Assembly (NCBI GenBank): GCA_029939715.1
Contig: JAOZSJ010000001.1
Location: 1,614-65,613, forward strand
Length of the DNA stretch: 64,000 nucleotides
Direction of reading: 5' to 3'
Source of the DNA: Desulfobacterales bacterium
GTDB lineage: Bacteria > Desulfobacterota > Desulfobacteria > Desulfobacterales > 4572-123
The position numbers and the translations under genes are program-made. Numbering within the stretch: position 1 is the stretch's first letter; every line of letters starts with the position of its first letter. Of this stretch, positions 40,959 through 63,598 are shown piece after piece. The notes below the pieces were generated by a model, which did not search any database, had not been told where the DNA came from, and saw only the letters and a list, made by a program, of their open reading frames with translations.

Positions 40959-43298
40959 TTACCGGGTAATACCTTTTTGAATCGTTCCGGTTTCAGAATC
41001 GTATTGCTGAAGCACTTTTTTTACCTCAGGTTGTATTTCGCTAAGAGTTGACTCAACCAACTCATAGTTTTCTTTTAACGTTGCCTCCATAATAGTTGAA
41101 ACGGCATTATAAAATTTAGGCGATCTGGAAGGTTCATGCTCATCACACAGTTCTCCAGCACTGGTAATATCCATGAGAATATTAATTATCGGGAAGCTGT
41201 CAAAGAATGTGTCCAGATCATTATAGGCATCAAGGTTCTCTTCATATGTTCCATCAAGATTCATTTTTTTGAGATGTTTTATCTTTTTCTTCATCAACGA
41301 CTGATTTTTTGACGAAAATGCTTTGGAAAAATCTTGCAGAGCGCTTTGAGCATAATATATTAAAGAATAACAATTCACTCCTTCTTCCGCCAGTCGCTTT
41401 GTCTTATCGATTTTCATTTCCACAAGGTTATAAATAGGTTCTATAATCTCACCGGTCTTTTTATCGATCACACTATGGATATCCTTAATGATGGAAACGA
41501 TTCGGGTTGTCATGTCATCAATGGTATAGGTGCTGTATTCATTTTTATTGGACTCATTGATCATGTCTTCCAGAGCCATAAACAACTTTTCATCAGCCTT
41601 TCCCCTGGATAATGTTTTGGTCAACTCAACCCCGGGCAGCTCTCTCAGGGATGCAGCAACTTCAACAAGATTATTTTCATCAATTTTCAGAGTTACCTCA
41701 ATACTAAGGGGCAGTTCCCTGATCTCCTCGGAGAGATCTCTCCGGTAATCATTAACGTCTTCAGTGTCAATATCCAGCCAGAAGTCACCGATAGACTCAT
41801 ATTTATCATTGACAATGTTAAAAAATTTTATATGCACAAGCTGCTGATCAGAATGAACAAGTTTAAAAACTTCCGTCCGCTCGCAGGGAAGAGGCGTATT
41901 CTTTTCAATAAACAGATATTTGTCTCCATTTTCAAGGACAACATAATAATCATGGGCCGCTGAATGAACAATATCAAAAACGCCCTGATCTATGATATGC
42001 TTTTCCAGATCAAATCCACATTTGCTACAGACAATGTCTGACTGGGAAACCGTGTTTCCACACCCCATGCACTCATAGGTATCGGAAAGCCGATGGCTTA
42101 AAATGGCGGCCCCTTCAGCAATGGCAAGCATGGGCCGCTCATGGACAAGCACTTTATCCGGTCCGAATATATCTTTTACAGCCCTGATAATACATGGAAT
42201 TTTTGAACTTCCACCAACAAGCAGCACATTGTCTATAAGATCCGGTGTAAAATGAATATCATCAAGCAGCTTTCGGGTCAGTTCCATGGCGTTTTTCACC
42301 ACAGGCCGGATAATTTCTTCAAACTGTTTTCTTGTCAAGGCAACATCTACATCCAGAAGGTCACCATCCTGGTCCTTTAAAAGACCCAGAAGTTCAATAT
42401 AAGCTTCGTCCTGATCGCTCAAGTTGATTTTTGCCTGCTCCACAGCAGCCGTCAACTCACCCAAAAAACGATTTTTCACCCCATTTTCCTGATGGTCTAT
42501 CACTTGGGCGATATCCCCAATATCATATTCACGCGCTGTTTCACTGAGCACAAAATCTTCGATTTTCCGGTCGATATCTTCTCCGCCCAGCCACATATTG
42601 CCGCCCTTGCCCTGTTCAATAAACTGACCGCCGCTGATAGTAAGCACAGACAGGTCAAAAGTTCCGCCTCCAAAATCAAATACCATGATTGTTTTGGCTT
42701 CATCATTTTTTACCTGATCAACTCCAAAAGAGATGGCAGCCGCAGTAGGTTCCGGAAGCAGCCGCTGCACTTTCAACCCGGCAAGGGATGCAGCAGTTCT
42801 TGTGGCATGCTTCTGCTTGTCGTTAAAATAGGCGGGCACGGTAATCACTGCATATTCAATCGCATCATGCAGGAAGGCTTCAGCATCCTTGTGCATTTTT
42901 TTAAGGATTTTGGATGAGATTTGTTCAGGGGTATATTCTTTTTCGTGTAAAAGGATGGCAAGGCTGTTCTCGGTCCCCATGGACTGACAGGTTATGGTAT
43001 TAAATTGCCGATGCCCTGATATAATTTTTTGAACTTCCGGGTTGGTAAAGCTTCTTCCCATCAATCGTTTAACTGCTGTCACTGTATTTACCGGATCCTG
43101 CTTTATCCATTCCAGGGCATGCTTTCCAACAATAAATTCCTGTCGTTTGATCAGTCCTACTAATTTTTTTTTCTTAACTGTAAGACATGACGGCGTTATC
43201 AGATCTCCCTCACTATTTTTAATAATTTCGATATGTACTTTTTTAATAGCTGCTGCTGAATTAGTTGTTCCCAAGTCTATTCCGATGGATTTTGGCAT
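40959..43298 (-). CDS. atypical Hsp70-family ATPase (779 aa) with zinc-ribbon insertion and non-canonical C-terminal domain
   Basis: Hsp70 NBD motifs IGIDLGTTNSAAA, VITVPAYFND, VFDFGGGTFDLSVL and LLVGGSSKIP. A CxxC-x10-CxxC ribbon (ECMGCGNTVSQSDIVCSKCG, aa 410-427) follows the NBD. A beta-rich segment and a ~200-aa helical tail come next. The tail is unlike the DnaK lid and has no acidic EEVD-like end. Confidence 0.9.
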   Translation of the reverse strand: MPKSIGIDLGTTNSAAAIKKVHIEIIKNSEGDLITPSCLTVKKKKLVGLIKRQEFIVGKHALEWIKQDPVNTVTAVKRLMGRSFTNPEVQKIISGHRQFNTITCQSMGTENSLAILLHEKEYTPEQISSKILKKMHKDAEAFLHDAIEYAVITVPAYFNDKQKHATRTAASLAGLKVQRLLPEPTAAAISFGVDQVKNDEAKTIMVFDFGGGTFDLSVLTISGGQFIEQGKGGNMWLGGEDIDRKIEDFVLSETAREYDIGDIAQVIDHQENGVKNRFLGELTAAVEQAKINLSDQDEAYIELLGLLKDQDGDLLDVDVALTRKQFEEIIRPVVKNAMELTRKLLDDIHFTPDLIDNVLLVGGSSKIPCIIRAVKDIFGPDKVLVHERPMLAIAEGAAILSHRLSDTYECMGCGNTVSQSDIVCSKCGFDLEKHIIDQGVFDIVHSAAHDYYVVLENGDKYLFIEKNTPLPCERTEVFKLVHSDQQLVHIKFFNIVNDKYESIGDFWLDIDTEDVNDYRRDLSEEIRELPLSIEVTLKIDENNLVEVAASLRELPGVELTKTLSRGKADEKLFMALEDMINESNKNEYSTYTIDDMTTRIVSIIKDIHSVIDKKTGEIIEPIYNLVEMKIDKTKRLAEEGVNCYSLIYYAQSALQDFSKAFSSKNQSLMKKKIKHLKKMNLDGTYEENLDAYNDLDTFFDSFPIINILMDITSAGELCDEHEPSRSPKFYNAVSTIMEATLKENYELVESTLSEIQPEVKKVLQQYDSETGTIQKGITR

Positions 43299-43449
43299 AA
43301 TTATTCCTCAATTATTAATAGTCAAAATTTTAGATTTAGTGGATATCAAAGCCAAAACCTCATTGCAATATTTATTGTAATCTGGGCCACCCTCGATCAA
43401 GTCTTATTTCCTGTCGCTGCCGGGGCATGGTATTTTATATAAAAATATC

Positions 43450-54181: not shown

Positions 54182-56443
54182 TTGACTAAACCGCTCGTGG
54201 TCGTGGAATCACCTACAAAAGTAAGAACAATCAATAAATATCTCGGTAATAAATTTAACGTTTCCTCCACCGTAGGGCACATTAAAGATCTTCCTCCCAG
54301 GGAACTCGGTATTGATATTGATGATGCCTTTAAACCGAAATACCGCACCATTGCCGGCAAAAGCAAAATTGTCCGGGCTCTAAAAAAAGCCGCCGGGGAA
54401 ACCACTGAAATATATTTAGCGTCCGACCCCGACCGGGAAGGAGAGGCTATTGCCTGGCATACGGCGGAAATTCTAAAAAAAAAGGGGAGAAAATTTTACC
54501 GTGTCCTTTTTCATGAACTGACCAAAAACGGAATTCAAAAGGCGATCCACAGCCCTGAAGAACTGAACAAAAATAAATATGAGGCCCAGCAGGCCCGCAG
54601 AATACTGGATCGGCTTGTCGGTTATCAGGTATCTCCCCTTTTATGGCGCAAGGTCAAGGGCGGGCTCAGTGCCGGCCGGGTTCAGTCCGTTGCCGTCAGG
54701 ATAATCTGTGAAAGGGAGCGCGCCATCTGGGCCTTTGATCCTGAAGAATACTGGACCATTACCGCTGACCTTGAAGGATCCGTTCCCCCTGTATTTTCCG
54801 CGAAACTGGCAAAAAAACAGGGCAAAAAAATTATAATTCCGGACAAAAATGCCTCGGACACGATCCTGAATGAACTGTCCGGTGCCAAATATATTGTCGA
54901 TAAAGTCACAAAAAAAACGACAAAACGAAATCCCCTGCCCCCTTTTATAACAAGCAAAATGCAGCAGGAGGCCATCCGCAAACTCAAATTTTCCGCAAAA
55001 AAAACCATGTCGGTGGCCCAACAGCTCTATGAAGGAGTTGATCTTGGCCCGGGAGAACCCACCGGCTTGATCACCTATATGCGAACGGACTCGATCCGTA
55101 TCGCTGCGGAAGCGGCCCATGAAGCGCTGGATCTTGTCCGCAAACAATTCGGCCCGGATTATGCGCTTGACAAACCACGGTTTTTTAAAAATCGCAACAA
55201 GGCTCAGGATGCACACGAGGCCATTCGGCCCACATCGGTTTTTCACACGCCCGAAAAGCTTACTCCATATCTTTCCAAAGACCAGTTGAAGTTATACCGC
55301 CTGATCTGGCAGCGATTTGTCGCATCCCAGATGCAGCCGGCCCTGATCAACCAGAACTCGATAGCCATTAAAGCCAATGCCTATACATTTACGGCCAGCG
55401 GTTCATCCGTCAAGTTTCCCGGATTCATGGCCCTTTACCTGTCGGCCGATGACGAGGCCGAAAAAAAAGAAAAAAAGCAGCAGCTTCCGGAGCTTGCAAA
55501 GGATGTTGAACTGAAAGTTCACGCCGTCAATCCAAAGCAGCACTTTACGCTGCCTCCACCTCGTTTCTCGGAAGCATCACTGGTCAAGGAACTGGAAGAA
55601 AACGGCATCGGGCGGCCCAGCACATACGCCTCGATTCTCACAACAATCCGGGACAAAGGGTACGTGGACTTTATGAAAGGCTATTTCAAACCCAGCGAGC
55701 TTGGATTTATTGTCAACGACCTTCTGGTACAGACCTTTCCGGATATCTTTTCAGTTGACTTTACGGCCAAACTGGAAAACCGCTTAGATGGCATAGAAGA
55801 GGCCCGGATCAAACTCATAGACGTGCTTTCCAAATTCTACAGCCCATTTTCAAAAAAGCTGGAAAATGCCCCGGACAGCATGCTGAGCATCAAGGGCGTG
55901 GGATTTGAAACCGATTTAAAATGCCCTGCCTGCAATGGGCCTCTGCATATTAAAGTCGGCAAAAACGGACCATTTATCGCCTGTAACAATTATCCGGAAT
56001 GCCGATTTTCCAGGGATTACACCCGCAATGAAAAGGGAGATATTCAACCGGTGGAATTACCCTCCGAAGAGGCCACCGATATAATCTGCGACCAGTGCGG
56101 CCGCCCCATGGTCATGAAAAGGGGCCGTTACGGCAATTTTCTGGCCTGCAGCGGTTACCCGGAATGTAAACACACCCAGTCCCTGGCCAACGGCAACGGA
56201 AAGGACCTGGGCATTGCATGCCCCGAACCGGGTTGTACCGGGAACATTGTTGAAAAAAAATCGCGCCGGGGTAAAATATTTTACGGGTGTAACCGTTTTC
56301 CCAAATGCACCTTTGCCACATGGGACAAACCCATAGACAAGCCCTGCCCCAGGTGCGGTGCTAAATTTATGGTAGAAAAAACTACAAAAAAACAAGGGAC
56401 CTTTCTGAATTGTATCAACCCTGAATGTAAATACCGGGAATAA
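54182..56443 (+). CDS. topA: DNA topoisomerase I
   Basis: 753 aa. Toprim LVVVESPTK...ASDPDREGEAIAWH, an active-site region ITYMRTDS, and multiple C-terminal C4 zinc ribbons (CPACNG, CDQCGR, CPEPGC, CPRCG). TTG start after GAGGGG. Confidence 0.95.
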   Translation: MTKPLVVVESPTKVRTINKYLGNKFNVSSTVGHIKDLPPRELGIDIDDAFKPKYRTIAGKSKIVRALKKAAGETTEIYLASDPDREGEAIAWHTAEILKKKGRKFYRVLFHELTKNGIQKAIHSPEELNKNKYEAQQARRILDRLVGYQVSPLLWRKVKGGLSAGRVQSVAVRIICERERAIWAFDPEEYWTITADLEGSVPPVFSAKLAKKQGKKIIIPDKNASDTILNELSGAKYIVDKVTKKTTKRNPLPPFITSKMQQEAIRKLKFSAKKTMSVAQQLYEGVDLGPGEPTGLITYMRTDSIRIAAEAAHEALDLVRKQFGPDYALDKPRFFKNRNKAQDAHEAIRPTSVFHTPEKLTPYLSKDQLKLYRLIWQRFVASQMQPALINQNSIAIKANAYTFTASGSSVKFPGFMALYLSADDEAEKKEKKQQLPELAKDVELKVHAVNPKQHFTLPPPRFSEASLVKELEENGIGRPSTYASILTTIRDKGYVDFMKGYFKPSELGFIVNDLLVQTFPDIFSVDFTAKLENRLDGIEEARIKLIDVLSKFYSPFSKKLENAPDSMLSIKGVGFETDLKCPACNGPLHIKVGKNGPFIACNNYPECRFSRDYTRNEKGDIQPVELPSEEATDIICDQCGRPMVMKRGRYGNFLACSGYPECKHTQSLANGNGKDLGIACPEPGCTGNIVEKKSRRGKIFYGCNRFPKCTFATWDKPIDKPCPRCGAKFMVEKTTKKQGTFLNCINPECKYRE

Positions 56444-56563
56444 AAACAGGAATAACGATACAAAATCAACAAAATAGAAATAATTTTAACTTATTATGAA
56501 AGATGCCATAAAAAACTTGACTTTGGTTATAATGATTGATAGTAACATTTACTCAAAATCAAG

Positions 56564-56677
56564 ATGGAAGAAGAAATGACAAATATCACAGCCCTTATCA
56601 GCCTTCTAAGCATAATTATCCTCCTCGTCGTAGGTGTCCTTGCCTGCCACGAGGAAAAATGGTTGATAACGCCGTAA
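56564..56677 (+). CDS. ilv operon leader peptide (37 codons, Ile/Leu/Val-rich)
   Basis: MEEEMTNITALISLLSIIILLVVGVLACHEEKWLITP has 16/37 residues as I/L/V. The run ALISLLSIIILLVVGVL is 13/17 I/L/V. It lies between a candidate promoter (TTGACT 56517-56522) and an intrinsic terminator just upstream of ilvB. An alternative start is ATG 56576, behind GGAAGAAGAA. Confidence 0.6.
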   Translation: MEEEMTNITALISLLSIIILLVVGVLACHEEKWLITP

Positions 56678-56717
56678 TTTAAGTAAAATACAGGAAATTC
56701 AAAATCCGTTATCAGCC
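56661..56717 (+). promoter_or_regulatory. antiterminator helix of the ilv attenuator
   Basis: GGTTGATAACG (56661-56671, last leader codons) can pair with CGTTATCAGCC (56707-56717), giving 10 Watson-Crick pairs plus 1 G-U. This sequesters the 5' arm of the terminator. GATAACG occurs twice (56665 and 56727). Confidence 0.55.
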
Positions 56718-56744
56718 TCAGGGGCCGATAACGGATTTTTTTTT
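56702..56744 (+). terminator. attenuator terminator upstream of ilvB
   Basis: A 12-bp perfect stem, AAATCCGTTATC (56702-56713) / GATAACGGATTT (56727-56738), with a 13-nt loop. The T-run extends to 56744 (9 T in total), 42 nt before the ilvB ATG. Confidence 0.75.
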
Positions 56745-56786: not shown

Positions 56787-58472
56787 ATGAAACTTACTGG
56801 TGCACAGGTCCTGATGGAAGTGCTCAAGGATGAAGGAGTTGACACAATTTTCGGCTTTCCCGGAGGGGCGGTCATTGATTTGTACGATGAGCTTGTAAAA
56901 ACAGACATCCGGCATGTACTTGTCCGGCATGAACAGGGGGCCGTACATGCCGCGGACGGCTATGCCCGGGCCGGCAACAAGACCGGAGTCTGCCTGGTCA
57001 CATCAGGGCCCGGAGCCACCAACACGGTGACCGGCCTTGCCACCGCCTATATGGATTCCATCCCCCTTGTCCTCATCACCGGACAGGTGCCCACCCATCT
57101 GATCGGCAATGATGCTTTTCAGGAGGTGGACATCGTGGGCATCACCCGCTCCTGCACCAAACATAATTATCTGGTAAACAGCGCCGAGGAGTTGCCGAGA
57201 ATCCTCAAGGAAGCCTTTCATATTGCACGGTCCGGACGGCCCGGACCTGTTCTGATCGACATTCCCAAGGACCTGACTACCCGCACCATTGATTACCAGC
57301 CCATCAAACGGGTTAAAATCAAATCCTACAATCCCACCTATAAGCCGAATATACGGCAATTGACCAAAGTGGTACAACTCATAAAAAAAGCTGAAAAACC
57401 GGTTATATTCGCCGGCGGCGGAGTAATTCTCTCCAATGCCGCATCTGAAATAACCCAATTGGCCCACACGATACAAAGTCCGGTGAGCACATCGCTCATG
57501 GGGCTGGGATCACTGCCCGGAACAGACCCTCTGTGGCTGGGGATGCTTGGAATGCACGGCACCTATCGGGCAAACATGGCTATCAGCGACTGTGATCTGC
57601 TCATCGCCGTAGGGGTTCGATTTGACGACCGGGTAACCGGAAAAACCGATACATTCGCATCCCAGGCCAAAATCGTCCATATCGATATCGATCCCACATC
57701 CATCCGAAAAAATGTACCGGTCACCATTCCGGTTGTGGGTGACTGCAGAATGACCATCCGAAAGCTCAACGAAATGCTGGAAGAAGAAAACCTCGAGGGC
57801 ATCAACGCCGACAGAGCCCCCTGGATCAACCGGATCGAAAAGTGGAAAAACATGAGCAAACTGGCCTTTGCACAAAAAGAGACCATCAAACCGCAATATG
57901 TCATCGAAAAACTTTATGCGCTGACCAGCGGGCAGGCCGTTATTACCACCGAAGTCGGCCAGAACCAGATGTGGGCTGCGCAGTATTATCACTTTGACCG
58001 CCCCAACCATTTTATTACTTCCGGAGGCCTTGGCACCATGGGATTCGGTCTGCCGGCTGCCATCGGAGCGCAGATTGCATGCCCGGACAAACTGGTGGTG
58101 GACGTAGCCGGCGACGGCAGTATCCAGATGAACAGTCAGGAACTGATGACCGCGGTCGAATGTCGTCTGCCGGTCAAGGTAGTCATTTTAAACAATCGCT
58201 ACCTTGGAATGGTCAGGCAATGGCAGGAACTTTTCTATAACCGTCGTTATGCCTGTACAGCCATGGAACAGGCCCCTGATTTTGTCAAGCTGGCCGAAGC
58301 ATACGGTGCCACTGGCCTGCGGGCGGAAAAACCCGAAGAGGTGGAGGCGGTTTTAAAGGAAGGCCTTTTTTCCGACAAAACCGTTATCATGGATTTTGTG
58401 GTGGAACGTGAGGAAAGCGTATATCCAATGGTTCCCGCCGGAGCTCCCATCACGGAAATGCTGCTGGTATAA
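56787..58472 (+). CDS. ilvB: acetolactate synthase large subunit
   Basis: 561 aa ThDP enzyme: GFPGGAVIDLYD, GPGATNTVTGLATAYMDSIP, GGLGTMGFGLPAAIGA and GDGSIQMNSQELMT. Confidence 0.95.
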   Translation: MKLTGAQVLMEVLKDEGVDTIFGFPGGAVIDLYDELVKTDIRHVLVRHEQGAVHAADGYARAGNKTGVCLVTSGPGATNTVTGLATAYMDSIPLVLITGQVPTHLIGNDAFQEVDIVGITRSCTKHNYLVNSAEELPRILKEAFHIARSGRPGPVLIDIPKDLTTRTIDYQPIKRVKIKSYNPTYKPNIRQLTKVVQLIKKAEKPVIFAGGGVILSNAASEITQLAHTIQSPVSTSLMGLGSLPGTDPLWLGMLGMHGTYRANMAISDCDLLIAVGVRFDDRVTGKTDTFASQAKIVHIDIDPTSIRKNVPVTIPVVGDCRMTIRKLNEMLEEENLEGINADRAPWINRIEKWKNMSKLAFAQKETIKPQYVIEKLYALTSGQAVITTEVGQNQMWAAQYYHFDRPNHFITSGGLGTMGFGLPAAIGAQIACPDKLVVDVAGDGSIQMNSQELMTAVECRLPVKVVILNNRYLGMVRQWQELFYNRRYACTAMEQAPDFVKLAEAYGATGLRAEKPEEVEAVLKEGLFSDKTVIMDFVVEREESVYPMVPAGAPITEMLLV

Positions 58473-58518
58473 GGGCTGCGAACTTACACATAAACGATTG
58501 CATTGAAAGATTTTGATC

Positions 58519-59037
58519 ATGACTGAAAATAACAACCATTTTGACCCGGCAAACGAAGAAAAACATATTTTTACAATGCTGGTGGACAACCAGCCGGGCG
58601 TGCTGTCCAGAATTGTTGGACTGTTCAGCGGCCGTGGCTTCAATATTGAAAGTCTTTGCGTCGCAGAAACCATGGAACCGCTGATATCCCGAATTACCAT
58701 CGTCACCAAGGCCAATATGCCGCTGGTTGAGCAGATCAAGAAACAGCTCAACAAACTGATTAATGTCATCAAGGTCCGCGACATGACCGGTTCAAAGTCG
58801 GTTCAGCGGGAAATGGCCCTGATCTGCGTCAGGGCCTCAAAGGAACATCGCGCGGAAATCCTGCGTATCGTTGATATTTTCAGATGCAAGGTCGTTGATG
58901 TGGGTCAGGAGCATTACACCATTGAGGTGACCGGAGACCAGGGCAAACTCACGGCTCTGCTGAATCTTTTAAAACCCATGGGAATCAAAAAAATTGCCCG
59001 AACCGGTGCCATTGCACTCTACCGGGAACCCAATTAG
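58519..59037 (+). CDS. ilvN: acetolactate synthase small (regulatory) subunit
   Basis: The ACT domain HIFTMLVDNQPGVLSRIVGLFSGRGFNIESL is typical of IlvN/IlvH. ATG 58519 has better SD spacing than the track's TTG 58513. Confidence 0.9.
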   Translation: MTENNNHFDPANEEKHIFTMLVDNQPGVLSRIVGLFSGRGFNIESLCVAETMEPLISRITIVTKANMPLVEQIKKQLNKLINVIKVRDMTGSKSVQREMALICVRASKEHRAEILRIVDIFRCKVVDVGQEHYTIEVTGDQGKLTALLNLLKPMGIKKIARTGAIALYREPN

Positions 59038-59067
59038 AAACGGCGGGACAGAAGACAGAAATAACGA

Positions 59068-59086
59068 GGCAGGCCTTGTGCCTGCC
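59068..59086. repeat. GC-rich hairpin (REP-like) in the ilvN-ilvC spacer
   Basis: GGCAGGC-CTTGT-GCCTGCC is a perfect 7-bp stem with no T-run. It is preceded by a tandem GACAGAA GACAGAA (59047-59060). Its architecture is related to the GGTGGGC hairpin plus GACAG of the 34.2/63.5 kb elements, but the sequence differs. Confidence 0.4.
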
Positions 59087-59150
59087 CGCCAGAAATCAGG
59101 ATAGAAAAAACAAATAACCGATAACAAAAAATTAACAACCGGAGGATAAA

Positions 59151-60200
59151 ATGGCAAAAATTGATTTTGGCGGTGTTGTTGAAGAAGTCATCACATCGGA
59201 AGAATTTACACTGGAAAAGGCCCGCGAGGTACTCAAGGATGAAACAGTTGCCGTGCTGGGGTACGGCATACAGGGACCTGGCCAGGCTTTAAATATGAGG
59301 GACAACGGCATCAATGTCATCGTGGGACAGCGCGAGGGCGGAAAATCCTGGGACAAGGCTGTTGCCGACGGATTTATCCCGGGGCAGACGCTCTTTCCCA
59401 TCGAGGAAGCCGCAACTCGCGGAACCGTCGTTCAGTTTCTGCTGTCCGATGCCGGCCAGATGGAGACCTGGCCAAAAATTAAAAAATGTCTGAACCAGGG
59501 TGATGCACTATATTTTTCACACGGTTTTTCCATTGTTTACAAAGACCAGACCAAAATAATACCGCCTGACAACATCGATGTGATTCTGGCGGCTCCCAAA
59601 GGCTCGGGAACTACAGTTCGAACCAACTTTCTGGACGGCAGCGGCATCAATTCCAGCTTTGCCGTATTCCAGGATTTTACCGGCCGGGCCCGGGAAAGAA
59701 CACTGGCTCTGGGAATTGCCATCGGCTCGGGCTATCTCTTTCCCACCACATTTGAGAAAGAGGTTTCAAGCGATCTTACCGGTGAACGCGGGGTTCTCAT
59801 GGGCTGTCTGGCCGGCGTCATGGAAGCCCAGTACGATATTCTGCGCAAAAACGGACACAGCCCCAGTGAGGCCTTTAATGAAACCGTTGAAGAACTTACC
59901 CAGAGTCTGATCCGTCTTGTTGCTCAAAACGGGATGGACTGGATGTTCGGCAACTGCAGCACCACGGCCCAGCGTGGAGCCCTGGACTGGGCCCCGAAGT
60001 TCAAGGATGCCGTGACCCCGGTCTTTAAAGATCTTTATGAAAGTGTAATTACCGGGGAAGAAGCCAGGCGTACCCTGGAGAAAAACAGCTCACCAAATTA
60101 TCGTGAAGAACTCGATAAAGAACTTTCAGCGATACACAATTCGGAAATGTGGCGTGCCGGTGCAGCGGTACGCTCTTTGAGGCCTGAAAACCGCAAATAA
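59151..60200 (+). CDS. ilvC: ketol-acid reductoisomerase
   Basis: 349 aa class I KARI: VAVLGYGIQGPGQALNMRDNG, FSHGF and LFPTTFEKEVSSDLTGERG. GGAGG SD before the ATG. Confidence 0.95.
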   Translation: MAKIDFGGVVEEVITSEEFTLEKAREVLKDETVAVLGYGIQGPGQALNMRDNGINVIVGQREGGKSWDKAVADGFIPGQTLFPIEEAATRGTVVQFLLSDAGQMETWPKIKKCLNQGDALYFSHGFSIVYKDQTKIIPPDNIDVILAAPKGSGTTVRTNFLDGSGINSSFAVFQDFTGRARERTLALGIAIGSGYLFPTTFEKEVSSDLTGERGVLMGCLAGVMEAQYDILRKNGHSPSEAFNETVEELTQSLIRLVAQNGMDWMFGNCSTTAQRGALDWAPKFKDAVTPVFKDLYESVITGEEARRTLEKNSSPNYREELDKELSAIHNSEMWRAGAAVRSLRPENRK

Positions 60201-60302
60201 ACAAGACCGATGAAAGCCGGGGAGCAGAGATCTGTGAATTTCCTGCTCCCCGGCGGACCTTTAGCTCCAGACCCATTAACCCATAATTTCAGGTGCAGCA
60301 TA

Positions 60303-61898
60303 ATGGAACCAATCCTGTTATATGACACGACCTTAAGAGACGGTACCCAAGGCGAAAACATCAATTTCAGCGCCCGGGAAAAAATTCGAATTGCCCGGCG
60401 GCTGGATGATATCGGAATCCATTATATTGAAGGCGGCTTTCCCGGCTCGAATCCCCGGGACCTCGAATTTTTCAAACTGGCCCGGGAAATTGAATTCAAA
60501 CATGCCCGGCTTGCCGCCTTTGGCTCAACCCGCAGATCCGGTATCAGCCCGGACGACGATCCAAATCTTAAAACACTTGTCGAGAGCGACACTCCGGCGG
60601 CCACCATCTTTGGTAAAACCTGGGATCTTCATGTCAGGCAGATTATAGGAATTACCATGGAAGAAAATCTGGCCATGATCCAGGAAAGTGTACGTTTTCT
60701 TCATGAAAACAACATGGAGGTTATCTATGATGCCGAGCATTTTTTTGATGGTTATCGCGATAACCCCGATTATGCCTGTGAGACCCTTCTGGCCGCCTGC
60801 CGGGGGGGAGCCGCCGGCATCGTGCTTTGTGACACCAACGGGGGGGCCCTGCCTTTTGATGTTGAAGCCATTATCCCCGTGATTCAACAAAAATTAAAAG
60901 ATGAACTGGTTAAGGACGGCAACAGCACATCGATTAAAATTGGAATTCATACCCACGACGACTGTGGACTGGCCGCTGCCAACGCCATCGCGGCGGTACG
61001 TTCCGGAGCGACCATGGTCCACGGCACCATTAACGGATACGGCGAACGGTGCGGCAATGCTGATCTGACAACGGTCATTCCGCTGTTGAAACTGAAATTG
61101 GGTTATGACTGCATGACTGATAAAAATCTTGCCAAACTGAAAAAATTATCTCGTTTCGTCAGTGAAACAGCCAACATGACACCGTTGAGCAACCGGCCTT
61201 TTGTAGGTAAAAGCGCCTTTGCCCACAAAGGCGGTGTCCATGTCAGCGCCATCATGAAAAACGCCAGAGCATATGAGCATATGACACCTGAACTGACCGG
61301 GAACAAAAGACGTGTTCTTATCTCCGATCTGGCAGGAAAAAGTAATGTAGAATACAAGGCCCGGGAACTGGGTGTAAACCTTAATGCAAACGGATCCAGC
61401 AGCCGCCAGATTGTTTCCGAAATAAAAAAACTGGAGCAAAATGGATTTCAGTTTGATGTGGCCGACGGATCATTCAAGATCCTGCTTGAAAAATACACCA
61501 GACAGTTCAAGCCTCTGTTCGAACTGGAATCATTCCGGGTTTCCATCGAGAAAGACAAGGACCAGCCCTGCTCTTCCCATGCAACCATCAAGATAGCGGT
61601 GGGTGATAAAAAGGAAATCACCGCGGCCGAAGGCAATGGACCGGTAAGCGCTCTTGACAATGCCCTGCGCAAAGCCCTGGAAAAATTTTACCCGGGTCTG
61701 GACAGCATGGGTCTGGTCGATTTCAAAGTGCGGGTTATAGACGGCCGGGAAGGTACCGCTGCAAAGGTACGGGTCCTGATCGATTCGAGGGACAAAGATC
61801 AGATATGGAGCACAATCGGTGTGTCCGAGGATATTATAGAAGCAAGCTGGCAGGCCCTGGCCGACAGTTTTCAATTCAAACTGTCCAAAAAAAAATAA
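60303..61898 (+). CDS. cimA: (R)-citramalate synthase (LeuA-family, CimA type)
   Basis: MEPILLYDTTLRDGTQGENINFS...IGIHYIEGGFPGSNPRD. About 531 aa with a C-terminal LeuA-dimer regulatory domain. It closely resembles CimA of Geobacter/Leptospira type as I remember them. Start at ATG 60303 after AGGTG; the track ORF starts at 60210. Confidence 0.8.
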   Translation: MEPILLYDTTLRDGTQGENINFSAREKIRIARRLDDIGIHYIEGGFPGSNPRDLEFFKLAREIEFKHARLAAFGSTRRSGISPDDDPNLKTLVESDTPAATIFGKTWDLHVRQIIGITMEENLAMIQESVRFLHENNMEVIYDAEHFFDGYRDNPDYACETLLAACRGGAAGIVLCDTNGGALPFDVEAIIPVIQQKLKDELVKDGNSTSIKIGIHTHDDCGLAAANAIAAVRSGATMVHGTINGYGERCGNADLTTVIPLLKLKLGYDCMTDKNLAKLKKLSRFVSETANMTPLSNRPFVGKSAFAHKGGVHVSAIMKNARAYEHMTPELTGNKRRVLISDLAGKSNVEYKARELGVNLNANGSSSRQIVSEIKKLEQNGFQFDVADGSFKILLEKYTRQFKPLFELESFRVSIEKDKDQPCSSHATIKIAVGDKKEITAAEGNGPVSALDNALRKALEKFYPGLDSMGLVDFKVRVIDGREGTAAKVRVLIDSRDKDQIWSTIGVSEDIIEASWQALADSFQFKLSKKK

Positions 61899-61919
61899 AC
61901 CATAAGGGAGAAACCAACC

Positions 61920-63458
61920 ATGAGCGATCGCATCTATATTTTTGATACAACTTTAAGAGACGGTGAACAGTCCCCGGGTGCCAGCATGAATGCCGGAGAA
62001 AAAATACGCCTTGCCATCCAGCTTGAAAAACTGGGGGTGGATATTTTAGAGGCTGGATTTCCAGCGGCCTCCAAGGGAGATTTTGATGCCGTATCCCTAA
62101 TTGCCGGCAAGGTACAAAAAATGGAGGTCGCGGCTCTGGCCCGCACGGGACGCGATGATATCGACCGGGCCTGGCAGGCGATCCAACACGCGGCCAAGCC
62201 CAGAATCCATACCTTTATCGCCACATCTGATATCCATATGAAATACAAGCTGGATATGACCCGTGACCAGGTGATCGATGCAACAGTGGATGCCGTCAAA
62301 TATGCCCGATCTTTTACCGACCGGGTTGAATTTTCAGCTGAAGACGGCTCCCGCAGCGATCGGGATTTTCTGTGCCGGGTTTTTGAAGCCGCCATTGACG
62401 CCGGGGCCACCACCATCAATCTTCCGGATACCGTGGGGTATGCCATACCCGAAGAATTTTCAGACCTGGTCAAATACGTCATGGCCCACACGCCCAACAT
62501 CCACAAGGCGGTTTTGAGCGTGCACTGCCACAACGATCTGGGTCTGGCCACGGCCAACACCCTGGCGGCCATCAATGCCGGGGCCCGCCAGGCCGAAGTA
62601 ACCATCAACGGTATTGGCGAAAGGGCCGGGAACACTTCCCTTGAAGAGGTGGTCATGGCCCTGAATACCCGTCCCAACTTTCTACCGGTAACCACCAACA
62701 TCCAAACCGAATATATCTACCCCACCAGTCGCCTGGTGAGCATGATCTCCGGCATCCTGGTACAGCCCAACAAAGCCATTGTTGGTGCCAATGCCTTTGC
62801 TCATGAGGCCGGCATCCATCAGGACGGGGTCCTGAAAAACCCCATGACCTATGAAATCATGAGCCCGGAAACCATCGGCCTGAGCACCAATAAGCTGGTC
62901 CTTGGCAAACACTCGGGCCGCCATGCCCTGCGCTCGCACCTGAAAAACCTGGGATATGACCTGACCGACGAAGAGTTAAAACTGATGTTTATCAAATTCA
63001 AGGATCTGGCCGACAAGAAAAAAATGTTGGTGGATGAGGATCTGGAAGCATTGGTCACCGAAAGCATTCTGCGAACCGATGATATTTTCCACCTGGAATA
63101 CCTGCATGTCATCTGCGGCAACACCGTATTGCCCATGGCCAGCATCAAAATCTCTATCAACGGCCGGTCGATACAGGGTGCGGATTATGGCAACGGCCCC
63201 ATTGATGCTACCTACAACACCATTTCAAAACTTGCCGGGACCAAGCCTGAACTCCTGCGATTTTCCGTCAGCGCACTTACCGGCGGCACCGACTCTCAGG
63301 GCGAAGTAACAGTGCGGCTGCGGGAAAACGGGCTGGTAGCACTGGGACGAGGGTCTGATCCGGATATTATCACCGCCAGCGCCAAAGCCTTTGTTAACGG
63401 CCTCAATCGTCTGGAATATCTGAAGGCCAATCCCATCCAGGCTTCGCAGGTTTTGTAG
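61920..63458 (+). CDS. leuA: 2-isopropylmalate synthase
   Basis: 512 aa. IFDTTLRDGEQSPGASM, HCHNDLGLATANTLAAINAGA and HEAGIHQDG, plus a C-terminal regulatory domain. Confidence 0.95.
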   Translation: MSDRIYIFDTTLRDGEQSPGASMNAGEKIRLAIQLEKLGVDILEAGFPAASKGDFDAVSLIAGKVQKMEVAALARTGRDDIDRAWQAIQHAAKPRIHTFIATSDIHMKYKLDMTRDQVIDATVDAVKYARSFTDRVEFSAEDGSRSDRDFLCRVFEAAIDAGATTINLPDTVGYAIPEEFSDLVKYVMAHTPNIHKAVLSVHCHNDLGLATANTLAAINAGARQAEVTINGIGERAGNTSLEEVVMALNTRPNFLPVTTNIQTEYIYPTSRLVSMISGILVQPNKAIVGANAFAHEAGIHQDGVLKNPMTYEIMSPETIGLSTNKLVLGKHSGRHALRSHLKNLGYDLTDEELKLMFIKFKDLADKKKMLVDEDLEALVTESILRTDDIFHLEYLHVICGNTVLPMASIKISINGRSIQGADYGNGPIDATYNTISKLAGTKPELLRFSVSALTGGTDSQGEVTVRLRENGLVALGRGSDPDIITASAKAFVNGLNRLEYLKANPIQASQVL

Positions 63459-63467
63459 GCTGCAGGC

Positions 63468-63530
63468 ATCGTAGGGTGGGCTGTGCCCACCGACAGAAAG
63501 AATACCTTCAACCTTCAATCTTTGAATGAT
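63468..63530 (+). repeat. REP-like hairpin element, copy B
   Basis: CATCGTAGGGTGGGCTGTGCCCACCGACAGAAAGAATACCTTCAACC... with core hairpin GGTGGGC-TGT-GCCCACC (63476-63492). It is homologous in inverted orientation to 34141-34203. Confidence 0.7.
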
Positions 63531-63540
63531 TACAGAAAAA

Positions 63541-63575
63541 GGGGGGCGCATACAAGGTATGGCCCCCCTTTTTTT
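63541..63575. terminator. bidirectional rho-independent terminator between leuA and the convergent small gene
   Basis: GGGGGGC (63541-63547) / GCCCCCC (63562-63568) stem with a 14-nt loop, a 7-T run (63569-75) and AAAA upstream. Confidence 0.7.
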
Positions 63576-63598
63576 GTTTACCAACCAGCAGGTATTGA

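Follow-up and report, generated by a model that had tools for sequence, protein, structure and literature searches.

The question raised by this locus is how a bacterium of the order Desulfobacterales controls the synthesis of its branched-chain amino acids (BCAA). In the stretch of DNA analyzed here (64,000 nucleotides, hereafter the window; forward strand of contig JAOZSJ010000001.1, positions 1,614 to 65,613, assembly GCA_029939715.1), the operon ilvB-ilvN-ilvC-cimA-leuA is separated from the upstream gene topA by an interval that contains a predicted promoter, an open reading frame (ORF) rich in isoleucine, leucine and valine (ILV) codons, an antiterminator strand, and an intrinsic terminator. 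An earlier note, made from the sequence alone, had read this interval as a classical attenuator. Our analysis points the same way. Judged by its sequence and by that of its relatives, the interval most probably encodes a ribosome-mediated leader-peptide transcription attenuator that would control the operon through the charging of tRNA-Ile, tRNA-Leu, and tRNA-Val, and we put the probability of this reading at about 0.9. The elements of the leader, at their positions in the window, are the following.

56517-56545, + strand: predicted sigma-70-type promoter (-35 TTGACT at 56517-56522; 17-nt spacer ending in TG-A; weak -10 TAGTAA at 56540-56545)
56576-56677, + strand: leader ORF of 33 codons plus TAA, MTNITALISLLSIIILLVVGVLACHEEKWLITP, with 6 Ile, 7 Leu, and 3 Val
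56593-56603, + strand: segment 1, candidate anti-antiterminator strand, CCTTATCAGCC, codons 6-10 of the 33-codon ORF; can pair with segment 2
56622-56655, + strand: hairpin H inside the ORF, CCTCGTC.GTAGGTG/loop/GCCTGCC.ACGAGG, -20.6 kcal/mol
56661-56672, + strand: segment 2, 5' strand of the antiterminator, GGTTGATAACGC, overlapping the last leader codons
56701-56744, + strand: intrinsic terminator (5' arm 56701-56718; loop 56719-56721; 3' arm, segment 4, 56722-56739; T9 at 56736-56744)
56706-56717, + strand: segment 3, inside the 5' arm of the terminator

Leader ORF and competing RNA strands upstream of ilvB

The ORF, the T run, and the complementary strands were all found where the earlier note had placed them, although its three-part architecture was incomplete: five elements are present, and segment 1 and hairpin H had been overlooked. 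As had been noticed, the last leader codons can pair with the 5' arm of the terminator. GGTTGATAACG (56661-56671) is complementary to CGTTATCAGCC (56707-56717) over 11 pairs, one of them G-U, and the antiterminator duplex of segment 2 with segment 3 (2:3; 56661-56672 with 56706-56717) has an energy of -15.4 kcal/mol. The terminator stem, previously described as a perfect 12-bp stem, consists instead of 13 contiguous Watson-Crick pairs (56701-56713 with 56727-56739) followed by an A.C mismatch and 4 further pairs; four of the 13 are A-U pairs that use the T tract, and RNAfold assigns the hairpin -22.3 kcal/mol. The count of nine T residues (56736-56744) was right, and the run does end 42 nt before the ilvB ATG at 56787.

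Hairpin H is placed between segments 1 and 2 and holds the last Val/Leu codons of the ILV run. In the minimum free energy fold, segment 1 pairs with 56661-56671, and the composite structure made of the 1:2 helix and H reaches -30.2 kcal/mol. Segments 1 and 3 are near-identical direct repeats, as are segments 2 and 4, and this direct-repeat pattern is the signature of a four-strand attenuator. The 246-nt region as a whole folds better than every one of 200 dinucleotide shuffles (200/200, z = -3.2).

The ORF is marked by its codon content. Ile, Leu, or Val occupies 16 of the 33 codons, and 14 of these fall within codons 4-22. When all small ATG-initiated ORFs of the window were ranked by ILV density (20-60 codons, all six frames, 373 ORFs), the leader ORF came first, with 10 ILV codons in its best 12-codon stretch and 43% ILV overall in this ranking against a mean of 20%. 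Another small ORF, at 43285-43380, is also rich in ILV codons; because it runs across the 5' end of a gene on the minus strand and has no ilv context, it was rejected as a chance occurrence.

Conservation of the leader in related genomes

With IlvB as the probe, we collected 80 loci from species-representative genomes and 80 from metagenomes, and scanned them mechanically for a mini-ORF rich in ILV codons with a hairpin and a T run after it. The best IlvB matches (67-77% identity) belong to metagenome-assembled genomes (MAGs) labeled Desulfobacterales or "delta proteobacterium". The whole arrangement was found upstream of ilv operons in about 40 of the 160 independently fetched loci; among the 26 closest IlvB genome loci with enough upstream sequence, 19 have the leader and terminator, and further metagenome loci have them as well. 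The ILV-rich mini-ORF, whose conservation the earlier note had named as a check on its proposal, is thus kept before the ilv operons of relatives.

The relatives also bear on where the ORF begins. The earlier note had described a version of 37 codons (56564-56677, translating to MEEEMTNITALISLLSIIILLVVGVLACHEEKWLITP) with 6 Ile, 7 Leu, and 3 Val. The ORF and its composition stand, but the second ATG, at 56576, is a more likely start than the ATG at 56564. In the alignment ATG 56576 matches the start codon of 24 relatives, so that the start is in register in 25 of 25 leaders. It lies 30 nt from the -10 hexamer, which is the modal distance in the family (range 27-41), compared with 18 nt for ATG 56564. 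A weak Shine-Dalgarno-like GGAAG precedes it (-3.3 kcal/mol), whereas none precedes ATG 56564 (+2.0). Finally, a start at 56576 gives 33 residues, inside the family range of 27-34, and puts segment 1 within codons 5-10, as in the relatives.

Comparison of the leaders supports the view that the ORF behaves as a translated frame. In the alignment of 25 leaders, all indels in the ORF body (10/10) are multiples of three, while elsewhere this holds for 9/24 at the junction of H and segment 2, 7/23 in the spacer, and 6/24 in the terminator loop. In every one of the 25, a stop codon lies inside segment 2 or no more than 6 nt after it, and it does so in two reading frames, either as TGA within GGGTTGATAATGG or as TAA/TAG after GLIMA; in the window the TAA (56675-56677) is 3 nt past segment 2. 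Since the stop at segment 2 is read in two frames, the C-terminal "motif" is conserved as an RNA strand and not as a peptide. What is conserved at the 3' end of the ORF appears to be the position at which a ribosome would stop.

The amino acids themselves show the same bias in relatives, whose peptides have 13-17 ILV codons each. In the peptide core of the 25 main-type leaders, 66% of residues are ILV, ILV makes up 89% of the hydrophobic residues, and Phe accounts for 1.6%, a composition more in keeping with regulatory codons than with a generic membrane helix. This matters for the alternative that the ORF codes independently for a small hydrophobic membrane peptide (e.g., a small membrane protein or a type I toxin), has its own terminator, and lies upstream of ilvB by chance. 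The peptide is indeed hydrophobic enough for one transmembrane helix, its weak sub-threshold Pfam matches are to transmembrane segments, and its motifs NLISLI and GLIMA are conserved. However, these motifs coincide with RNA pairing strands, the C-terminal one being read in two frames; subfamilies switch to nearly pure Ile or Val runs; the element always heads an ilv operon despite differing neighbors; and the antiterminator covaries with the terminator, which is needless for a plain gene terminator. When seven leader peptides were compared with Pfam and NCBIfam at E <= 10, no leader-peptide family was matched and only sub-threshold, transmembrane-like noise appeared. We regard a free-standing peptide gene as very improbable.

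Selection on the RNA was assessed with the 25 main-type leaders (alignment A4), using 500 shuffles and slid-partner controls. In the terminator (3:4), 89.9% of cells are paired (28-53% when the partner is slid) and 6 pairs have changed on both sides; in the antiterminator (2:3), 95.3% are paired (slid, 17-61%) and 3 pairs have changed on both sides. No shuffle of 500 reached the covariation score of either helix. One position changes in step across three strands: where segment 3 alternates between T and C, segments 2 and 4 alternate between A and G. A T7-T9 tract is kept in all 25 leaders. This comparison, with its conserved ORF, antiterminator, and terminator and its covariation in each of the two helices, strengthens the proposal of ribosome-mediated attenuation.

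Hairpin H shows a comparable pattern, with 73% of cells paired in an unrefined alignment (slid, 44-60%), 9 pairs changed on both sides, and 0/500 shuffles reaching its score. RNAalifold predicted no pairs on the MAFFT alignment of the H region because the arms differ in length, and H was assessed by per-sequence folds and a named-structure count. Folded one by one, all main-type leaders form a hairpin here, with energies from -15 to -26 kcal/mol and with differing stem sequences. A three-codon mis-registration of segment 1 by MAFFT was also considered and ruled out; a duplex search gave the same placement as MAFFT. When synonymous codons were permuted with the peptide and the codons held the same, the ORF RNA became less stable (window z = -3.5; mean -2.4), and we conclude that RNA structure within the ORF is under selection. 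The almost pure Ile subtype described below was without this signal. In most relatives the loop of H reads AUUAUU(AU) and so displays two or three Ile codons; in the window it is GUC-CUU (Val-Leu; 56637-56640, A4 columns 77-82).

Competing terminator and antiterminator helices also serve as the expression platform of riboswitches and T-boxes, and some Firmicutes ilvB genes carry ppGpp riboswitches (PMC10272879), so the conserved RNA could be a riboswitch, a T-box, or a site of protein-mediated antitermination, with the ORF incidental. Yet no Rfam family, including leader, T-box, and ppGpp (ykkC-type) families, matched the window at E <= 10 or nine relatives at E <= 1, and T-box and ppGpp models likewise gave nothing at gathering thresholds when 19 related loci were scanned. 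Besides H there is no conserved aptamer-like structured domain, the region 5' of segment 2 evolves as a coding frame (indels in threes, start and stop conserved), and the enrichment is specific to codons for the end products of the pathway. This possibility is slimmer still than that of a peptide gene. Permissive Rfam matches in the window and its relatives (MIR868, MIR2670, and similar) fell on the terminator hairpin and were set aside as chance.

The genomic setting is equally regular. In about 25 Desulfobacterales-type loci, the main-type arrangement always heads an ilv operon, before either ilvB or ilvD-ilvB. It lies directly before ilvB in, e.g., L001, L002, L004, L007, and L008, and the order topA-leader-ilvB is common to the window and L001. 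Before ilvD-ilvB, about 1.8 kb upstream of ilvB, it is found in seven loci (L003:1078-1244, L005:1108-1277, L006:1056-1224, L009:1029-1195, L014:1119-1281, L027:900-1058, and L028:1148-1305). The L003 leader is the closest to that of the window, with a nearly identical hairpin H, and its upstream gene is thiC, not topA (the only upstream gene identified among the ilvD-ilvB loci is that of L003). Because the leader precedes ilv genes with differing neighbors, the element travels with the ilv operon and not with topA.

These findings also address the simplest alternative, namely that the hairpin and T run are the topA terminator, or a chance hairpin, and the ORF a chance frame in an AT-rich spacer. 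The element does lie downstream of topA, which ends at 56443, and the hairpin reads as a terminator on the opposite strand too (as it does in L005). On the other hand, topA and the ORF are separated by a conserved promoter, seven loci have the element before ilvD-ilvB, with thiC rather than topA upstream in L003, and the conservation, covariation, and coding signature over 25 loci exclude chance. We give this alternative almost no weight.

The promoter just mentioned is conserved in 24 of the 25 related leaders as TTGAC(A/T), a 17-nt spacer, and a TAnnnn hexamer in the same place, and transcription would start at about position 56552. In these 24 leaders the -35 is near-perfect (TTGACA), and the -10 is always poor (TAnnnn), with TGT or TGC usually before it. 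The poor -10 may reflect lineage-specific promoter rules or a dependence on an extended -10.

No leader was found within 3 kb of ilvB in the close relatives L015, L017, L019, L020, and L022. All five share a peptide end, ...AGGLVEY(I/V)KK, just before ilvB. It is presumably the C-terminus of an upstream gene, which may encode a LeuD-like small subunit. In these loci ilvB is probably internal to a longer operon, with any leader further upstream.

Proposed mechanism and evidence against it

We propose that the leader works in the following way. Transcription would start about 25 nt 5' of the 33-codon ORF (56576-56677). When BCAA are plentiful, the ribosome would reach the stop codon (56675-56677) and cover segment 2 (56661-56672), leaving segment 3 free to form the 3:4 terminator (56701-56739 plus T9), and polymerase would stop 42 nt before ilvB. 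When any one of Ile, Leu, or Val is scarce, the ribosome would stall in the ILV run (about 56585-56641), where it would cover or isolate segment 1 and melt hairpin H. Segment 2, left free, would then pair with segment 3 before segment 4 is made, so that no terminator would form and the operon would be transcribed. If the leader is not translated, segment 1 and hairpin H would probably sequester segment 2. Hairpin H is in addition a candidate for pausing or timing polymerase, which may keep transcription and translation coupled, and it would also close the 1:2 structure and clamp segment 1 to segment 2.

Folding of the leader, a check that the earlier note had put forward, is consistent with this scheme: the antiterminator (-15.4 kcal/mol) forms in modeled nascent RNA before segment 4 is made. 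With a ribosome footprint of 30 nt, a stall at each of codons 5-22 gives the full 11-pair 2:3 helix; with the footprint moved to the stop codon, segment 2 is hidden and most of segment 3 has no partner. Both halves of the claim made earlier, that a ribosome at the stop would mask the antiterminator and a stalled one would free it, therefore agree with the modeled folds and with the position of the stop codon in 25/25 leaders.

Several observations weigh against this scheme. First, the leader ORF has a weak Shine-Dalgarno sequence (-3.3 kcal/mol), and such an element is missing from several relatives. Second, the -10 (TAGTAA) is poor, and consensus scanning called neither the promoter nor the terminator; the promoter went unreported because of its weak -10, and the simple terminator scan missed the hairpin probably because of the A.C mismatch. 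Third, the 1:2 helix in the window (-12.7 kcal/mol) is weaker than 2:3 (-15.4 kcal/mol), for which reason untranslated nascent RNA at equilibrium also folds the antiterminator; the branch in which absence of translation leads to termination may thus depend on kinetics or be leaky here. In most relatives 1:2 is as strong as or stronger than 2:3 (in L021, -23.3 versus -16.7). Fourth, covariation in 1:2 does not exceed that of shuffles. Its strands are paired in 82.3% of cells (slid, 22-50%), a percentage reached by 139/500 shuffles, and 2 pairs have changed on both sides, with 202/500 shuffles reaching the covariation score; 1:2 is best described, from the alignment, as a conserved pairing potential. 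Fifth, the terminator is thermodynamically preferred once segment 4 is made (-22.3 versus about -15 kcal/mol), and antitermination therefore rests on co-transcriptional order, as it does in classical attenuators. Finally, in the ilvB leader of Streptomyces coelicolor, substitution of the candidate regulatory codons reportedly had no effect on regulation (PMC1262725), so that even an ilvB leader of convincing appearance does not prove classical attenuation.

The downstream operon, leader subfamilies, and known attenuators

The genes flanking the leader, and the hairpin that follows the last of them, are listed here; the five operon genes each match the named NCBIfam model above its curated cut-off.

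54182-56443: topA, upstream neighbor of the leader region
56787-63458, + strand: ilvB-ilvN-ilvC-cimA-leuA operon as a whole
56787-58472, + strand: ilvB (TIGR00118)
58513-59037, + strand: ilvN (NF008864)
59151-60200, + strand: ilvC (TIGR00465)
60210-61898, + strand: cimA, citramalate synthase (TIGR00977)
61920-63458, + strand: leuA (NF002086)
63528-63576 (about): G/C-rich hairpin 3' of leuA with A and T runs on its flanks, AAAAAGGGGGGCGC...GGCCCCCCTTTTTTT

The hairpin after leuA is probably a bidirectional terminator that closes the operon. It also gave a sub-threshold Rfam match, "sraA", on the minus strand.

Beyond the main type, two subtypes of leader were seen, both in more distant loci. 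One is almost pure Ile (L043, L063, L138, and L140). The other is Val-rich and comes from Syntrophales-type loci (L034, L038, L039, L105, L112, L125, L127, and L131); its terminator differs (GCCGCGGGCCCC...), and two terminator-like hairpins often follow in tandem, as in L034:2783-2990, L038:644-850, L039:2789-2960, L112:761-955, and L131:762-955, among others. The tandem elements, each a hairpin plus T run, are about 40-45 nt apart and read GCCGCGGGCCCC...GCGGC TTTTTT, then GCCGC...GCGGC TTTTTT. They may represent a tandem attenuator or a design based on alternative pairing.

A single MAG contig, L043, has two tandem acetolactate synthase operons, each with its own leader (332-465 and 2818-2969). 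A Val-rich leader (MIHHNLNSSILVVAVVVLVLMGTAARFL, with the GCCGCGGGCCCC-type terminator) precedes an ilvB'/ilvN' paralogue pair, and the second ilvB follows a leader that is almost pure Ile (MNGSRIANIAIIIIIGIIIPFRTGAG). The arrangement recalls ivbL and ilvL in E. coli and suggests amino-acid sensing specific to each isozyme. A short contig labeled as a Gammaproteobacteria MAG (L010; JAIVWA010000608.1, 2995 nt) has a leader, terminator, and IlvB whose design is almost the same as in L008, a Deltaproteobacteria MAG, and it is probably mis-binned.

In the ilvL, ivbL, and leuL attenuators of E. coli and Salmonella, which belong to ilvGMEDA, ilvBN, and leu, respectively, a promoter-proximal ILV-rich ORF is followed by overlapping anti-antiterminator, antiterminator, and terminator structures and a U tract, and a ribosome that has reached the stop codon prevents the antiterminator from forming. 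The Desulfobacterales leader follows the same logic, and its proposed control by several amino acids resembles that of ilvGMEDA, but it has no detectable sequence relationship to these leaders. It differs from them as well in the operon that it precedes (ilvBNC-cimA-leuA, with the citramalate route to isoleucine), in its extra hairpin inside the ORF, and in its Desulfobacterales-group host.

The statement in the earlier note that such control is poorly documented outside Gammaproteobacteria does not hold. Published leader-peptide attenuators of ilvB include those of Actinobacteria (PMC1262725, PMC11857589, PMC10272879), of Firmicutes (PMC5794164), and of Leptospira and various phyla (PMC10272879), and Naville and Gautheret described leader peptides in Firmicutes (PMC2965389). 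According to Narunsky et al., attenuation by upstream ORFs (uORFs) is common for ilvB (PMC10272879). We found no description of such leaders for Desulfobacterota or delta-proteobacteria in the searchable literature.

Among these systems, the Corynebacterium ilvBNC attenuator (ilvB-II motif, three-hairpin model) has been dissected by mutation and reporter assays (PMC11857589, PMC10272879). It too lies upstream of ilvBNC and has a BCAA-rich uORF followed by terminator, antiterminator, and anti-antiterminator hairpins, but it differs in sequence family, peptide, and lineage (Actinobacteria); the leader described here is longer, with many more regulatory codons (16) and a separate, covarying hairpin inside the ORF. 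The ilv-leu operon of Staphylococcus aureus is likewise a combined operon under a leader-peptide attenuator outside the Proteobacteria (PMC5794164), but its control is leucine-specific and layered with CodY repression, and it shares no sequence similarity with the leader here. The ilvB-OMG and Leptospira ilvB RNA motifs from the Breaker laboratory have been reinterpreted as attenuators with BCAA-rich uORFs (PMC10272879). These motifs are putative attenuators, and the Desulfobacterales leader forms a sequence and structure family distinct from them, since neither the window nor its relatives gave a match to any Rfam model.

Taken together, the sequence evidence indicates that the Desulfobacterales leader is a conserved, lineage-specific, and mechanistically ordinary ribosome-sensing attenuator. 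A broader reading is possible, which we offer tentatively and hold to be somewhat less likely than the contrary. The leaders would make up an undescribed attenuator RNA family widespread in Desulfobacterota, with a covarying intra-ORF hairpin that carries the last regulatory codons (Ile-Ile in the loop in most relatives) and that may pause or time transcription, and with subfamilies tuned to mixed Ile/Leu/Val, to Ile nearly alone, or, in the type with tandem terminators, mainly to Val; some subfamilies are found on separate acetolactate synthase paralogues of one genome (L043). If this is true, the paralogue-specific leaders of L043 would represent isozyme-specific sensing that evolved independently of the enterobacterial ilvL/ivbL pair. 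The terminated RNA of about 190 nt, or the hydrophobic peptide, might also act in trans, a possibility raised by analogy with the trans action reported for rnTrpL/peTrpL in Sinorhizobium (PMC7298713).

The general understanding of attenuation is unchanged by this leader, which adds another independent lineage in support of recurrent uORF attenuation of ilvB; its most novel aspects are the intra-ORF hairpin and the amino acid-specific subfamilies on acetohydroxyacid synthase (AHAS) paralogues. The roughly 40 aligned examples could seed an RNA-family model by which unannotated leaders would become recognizable in Desulfobacterota genomes and metagenomes. For the organisms themselves, the leader offers a testable model of how BCAA synthesis, including the citramalate route to isoleucine, may be controlled in uncultured sulfate-reducer-type bacteria.

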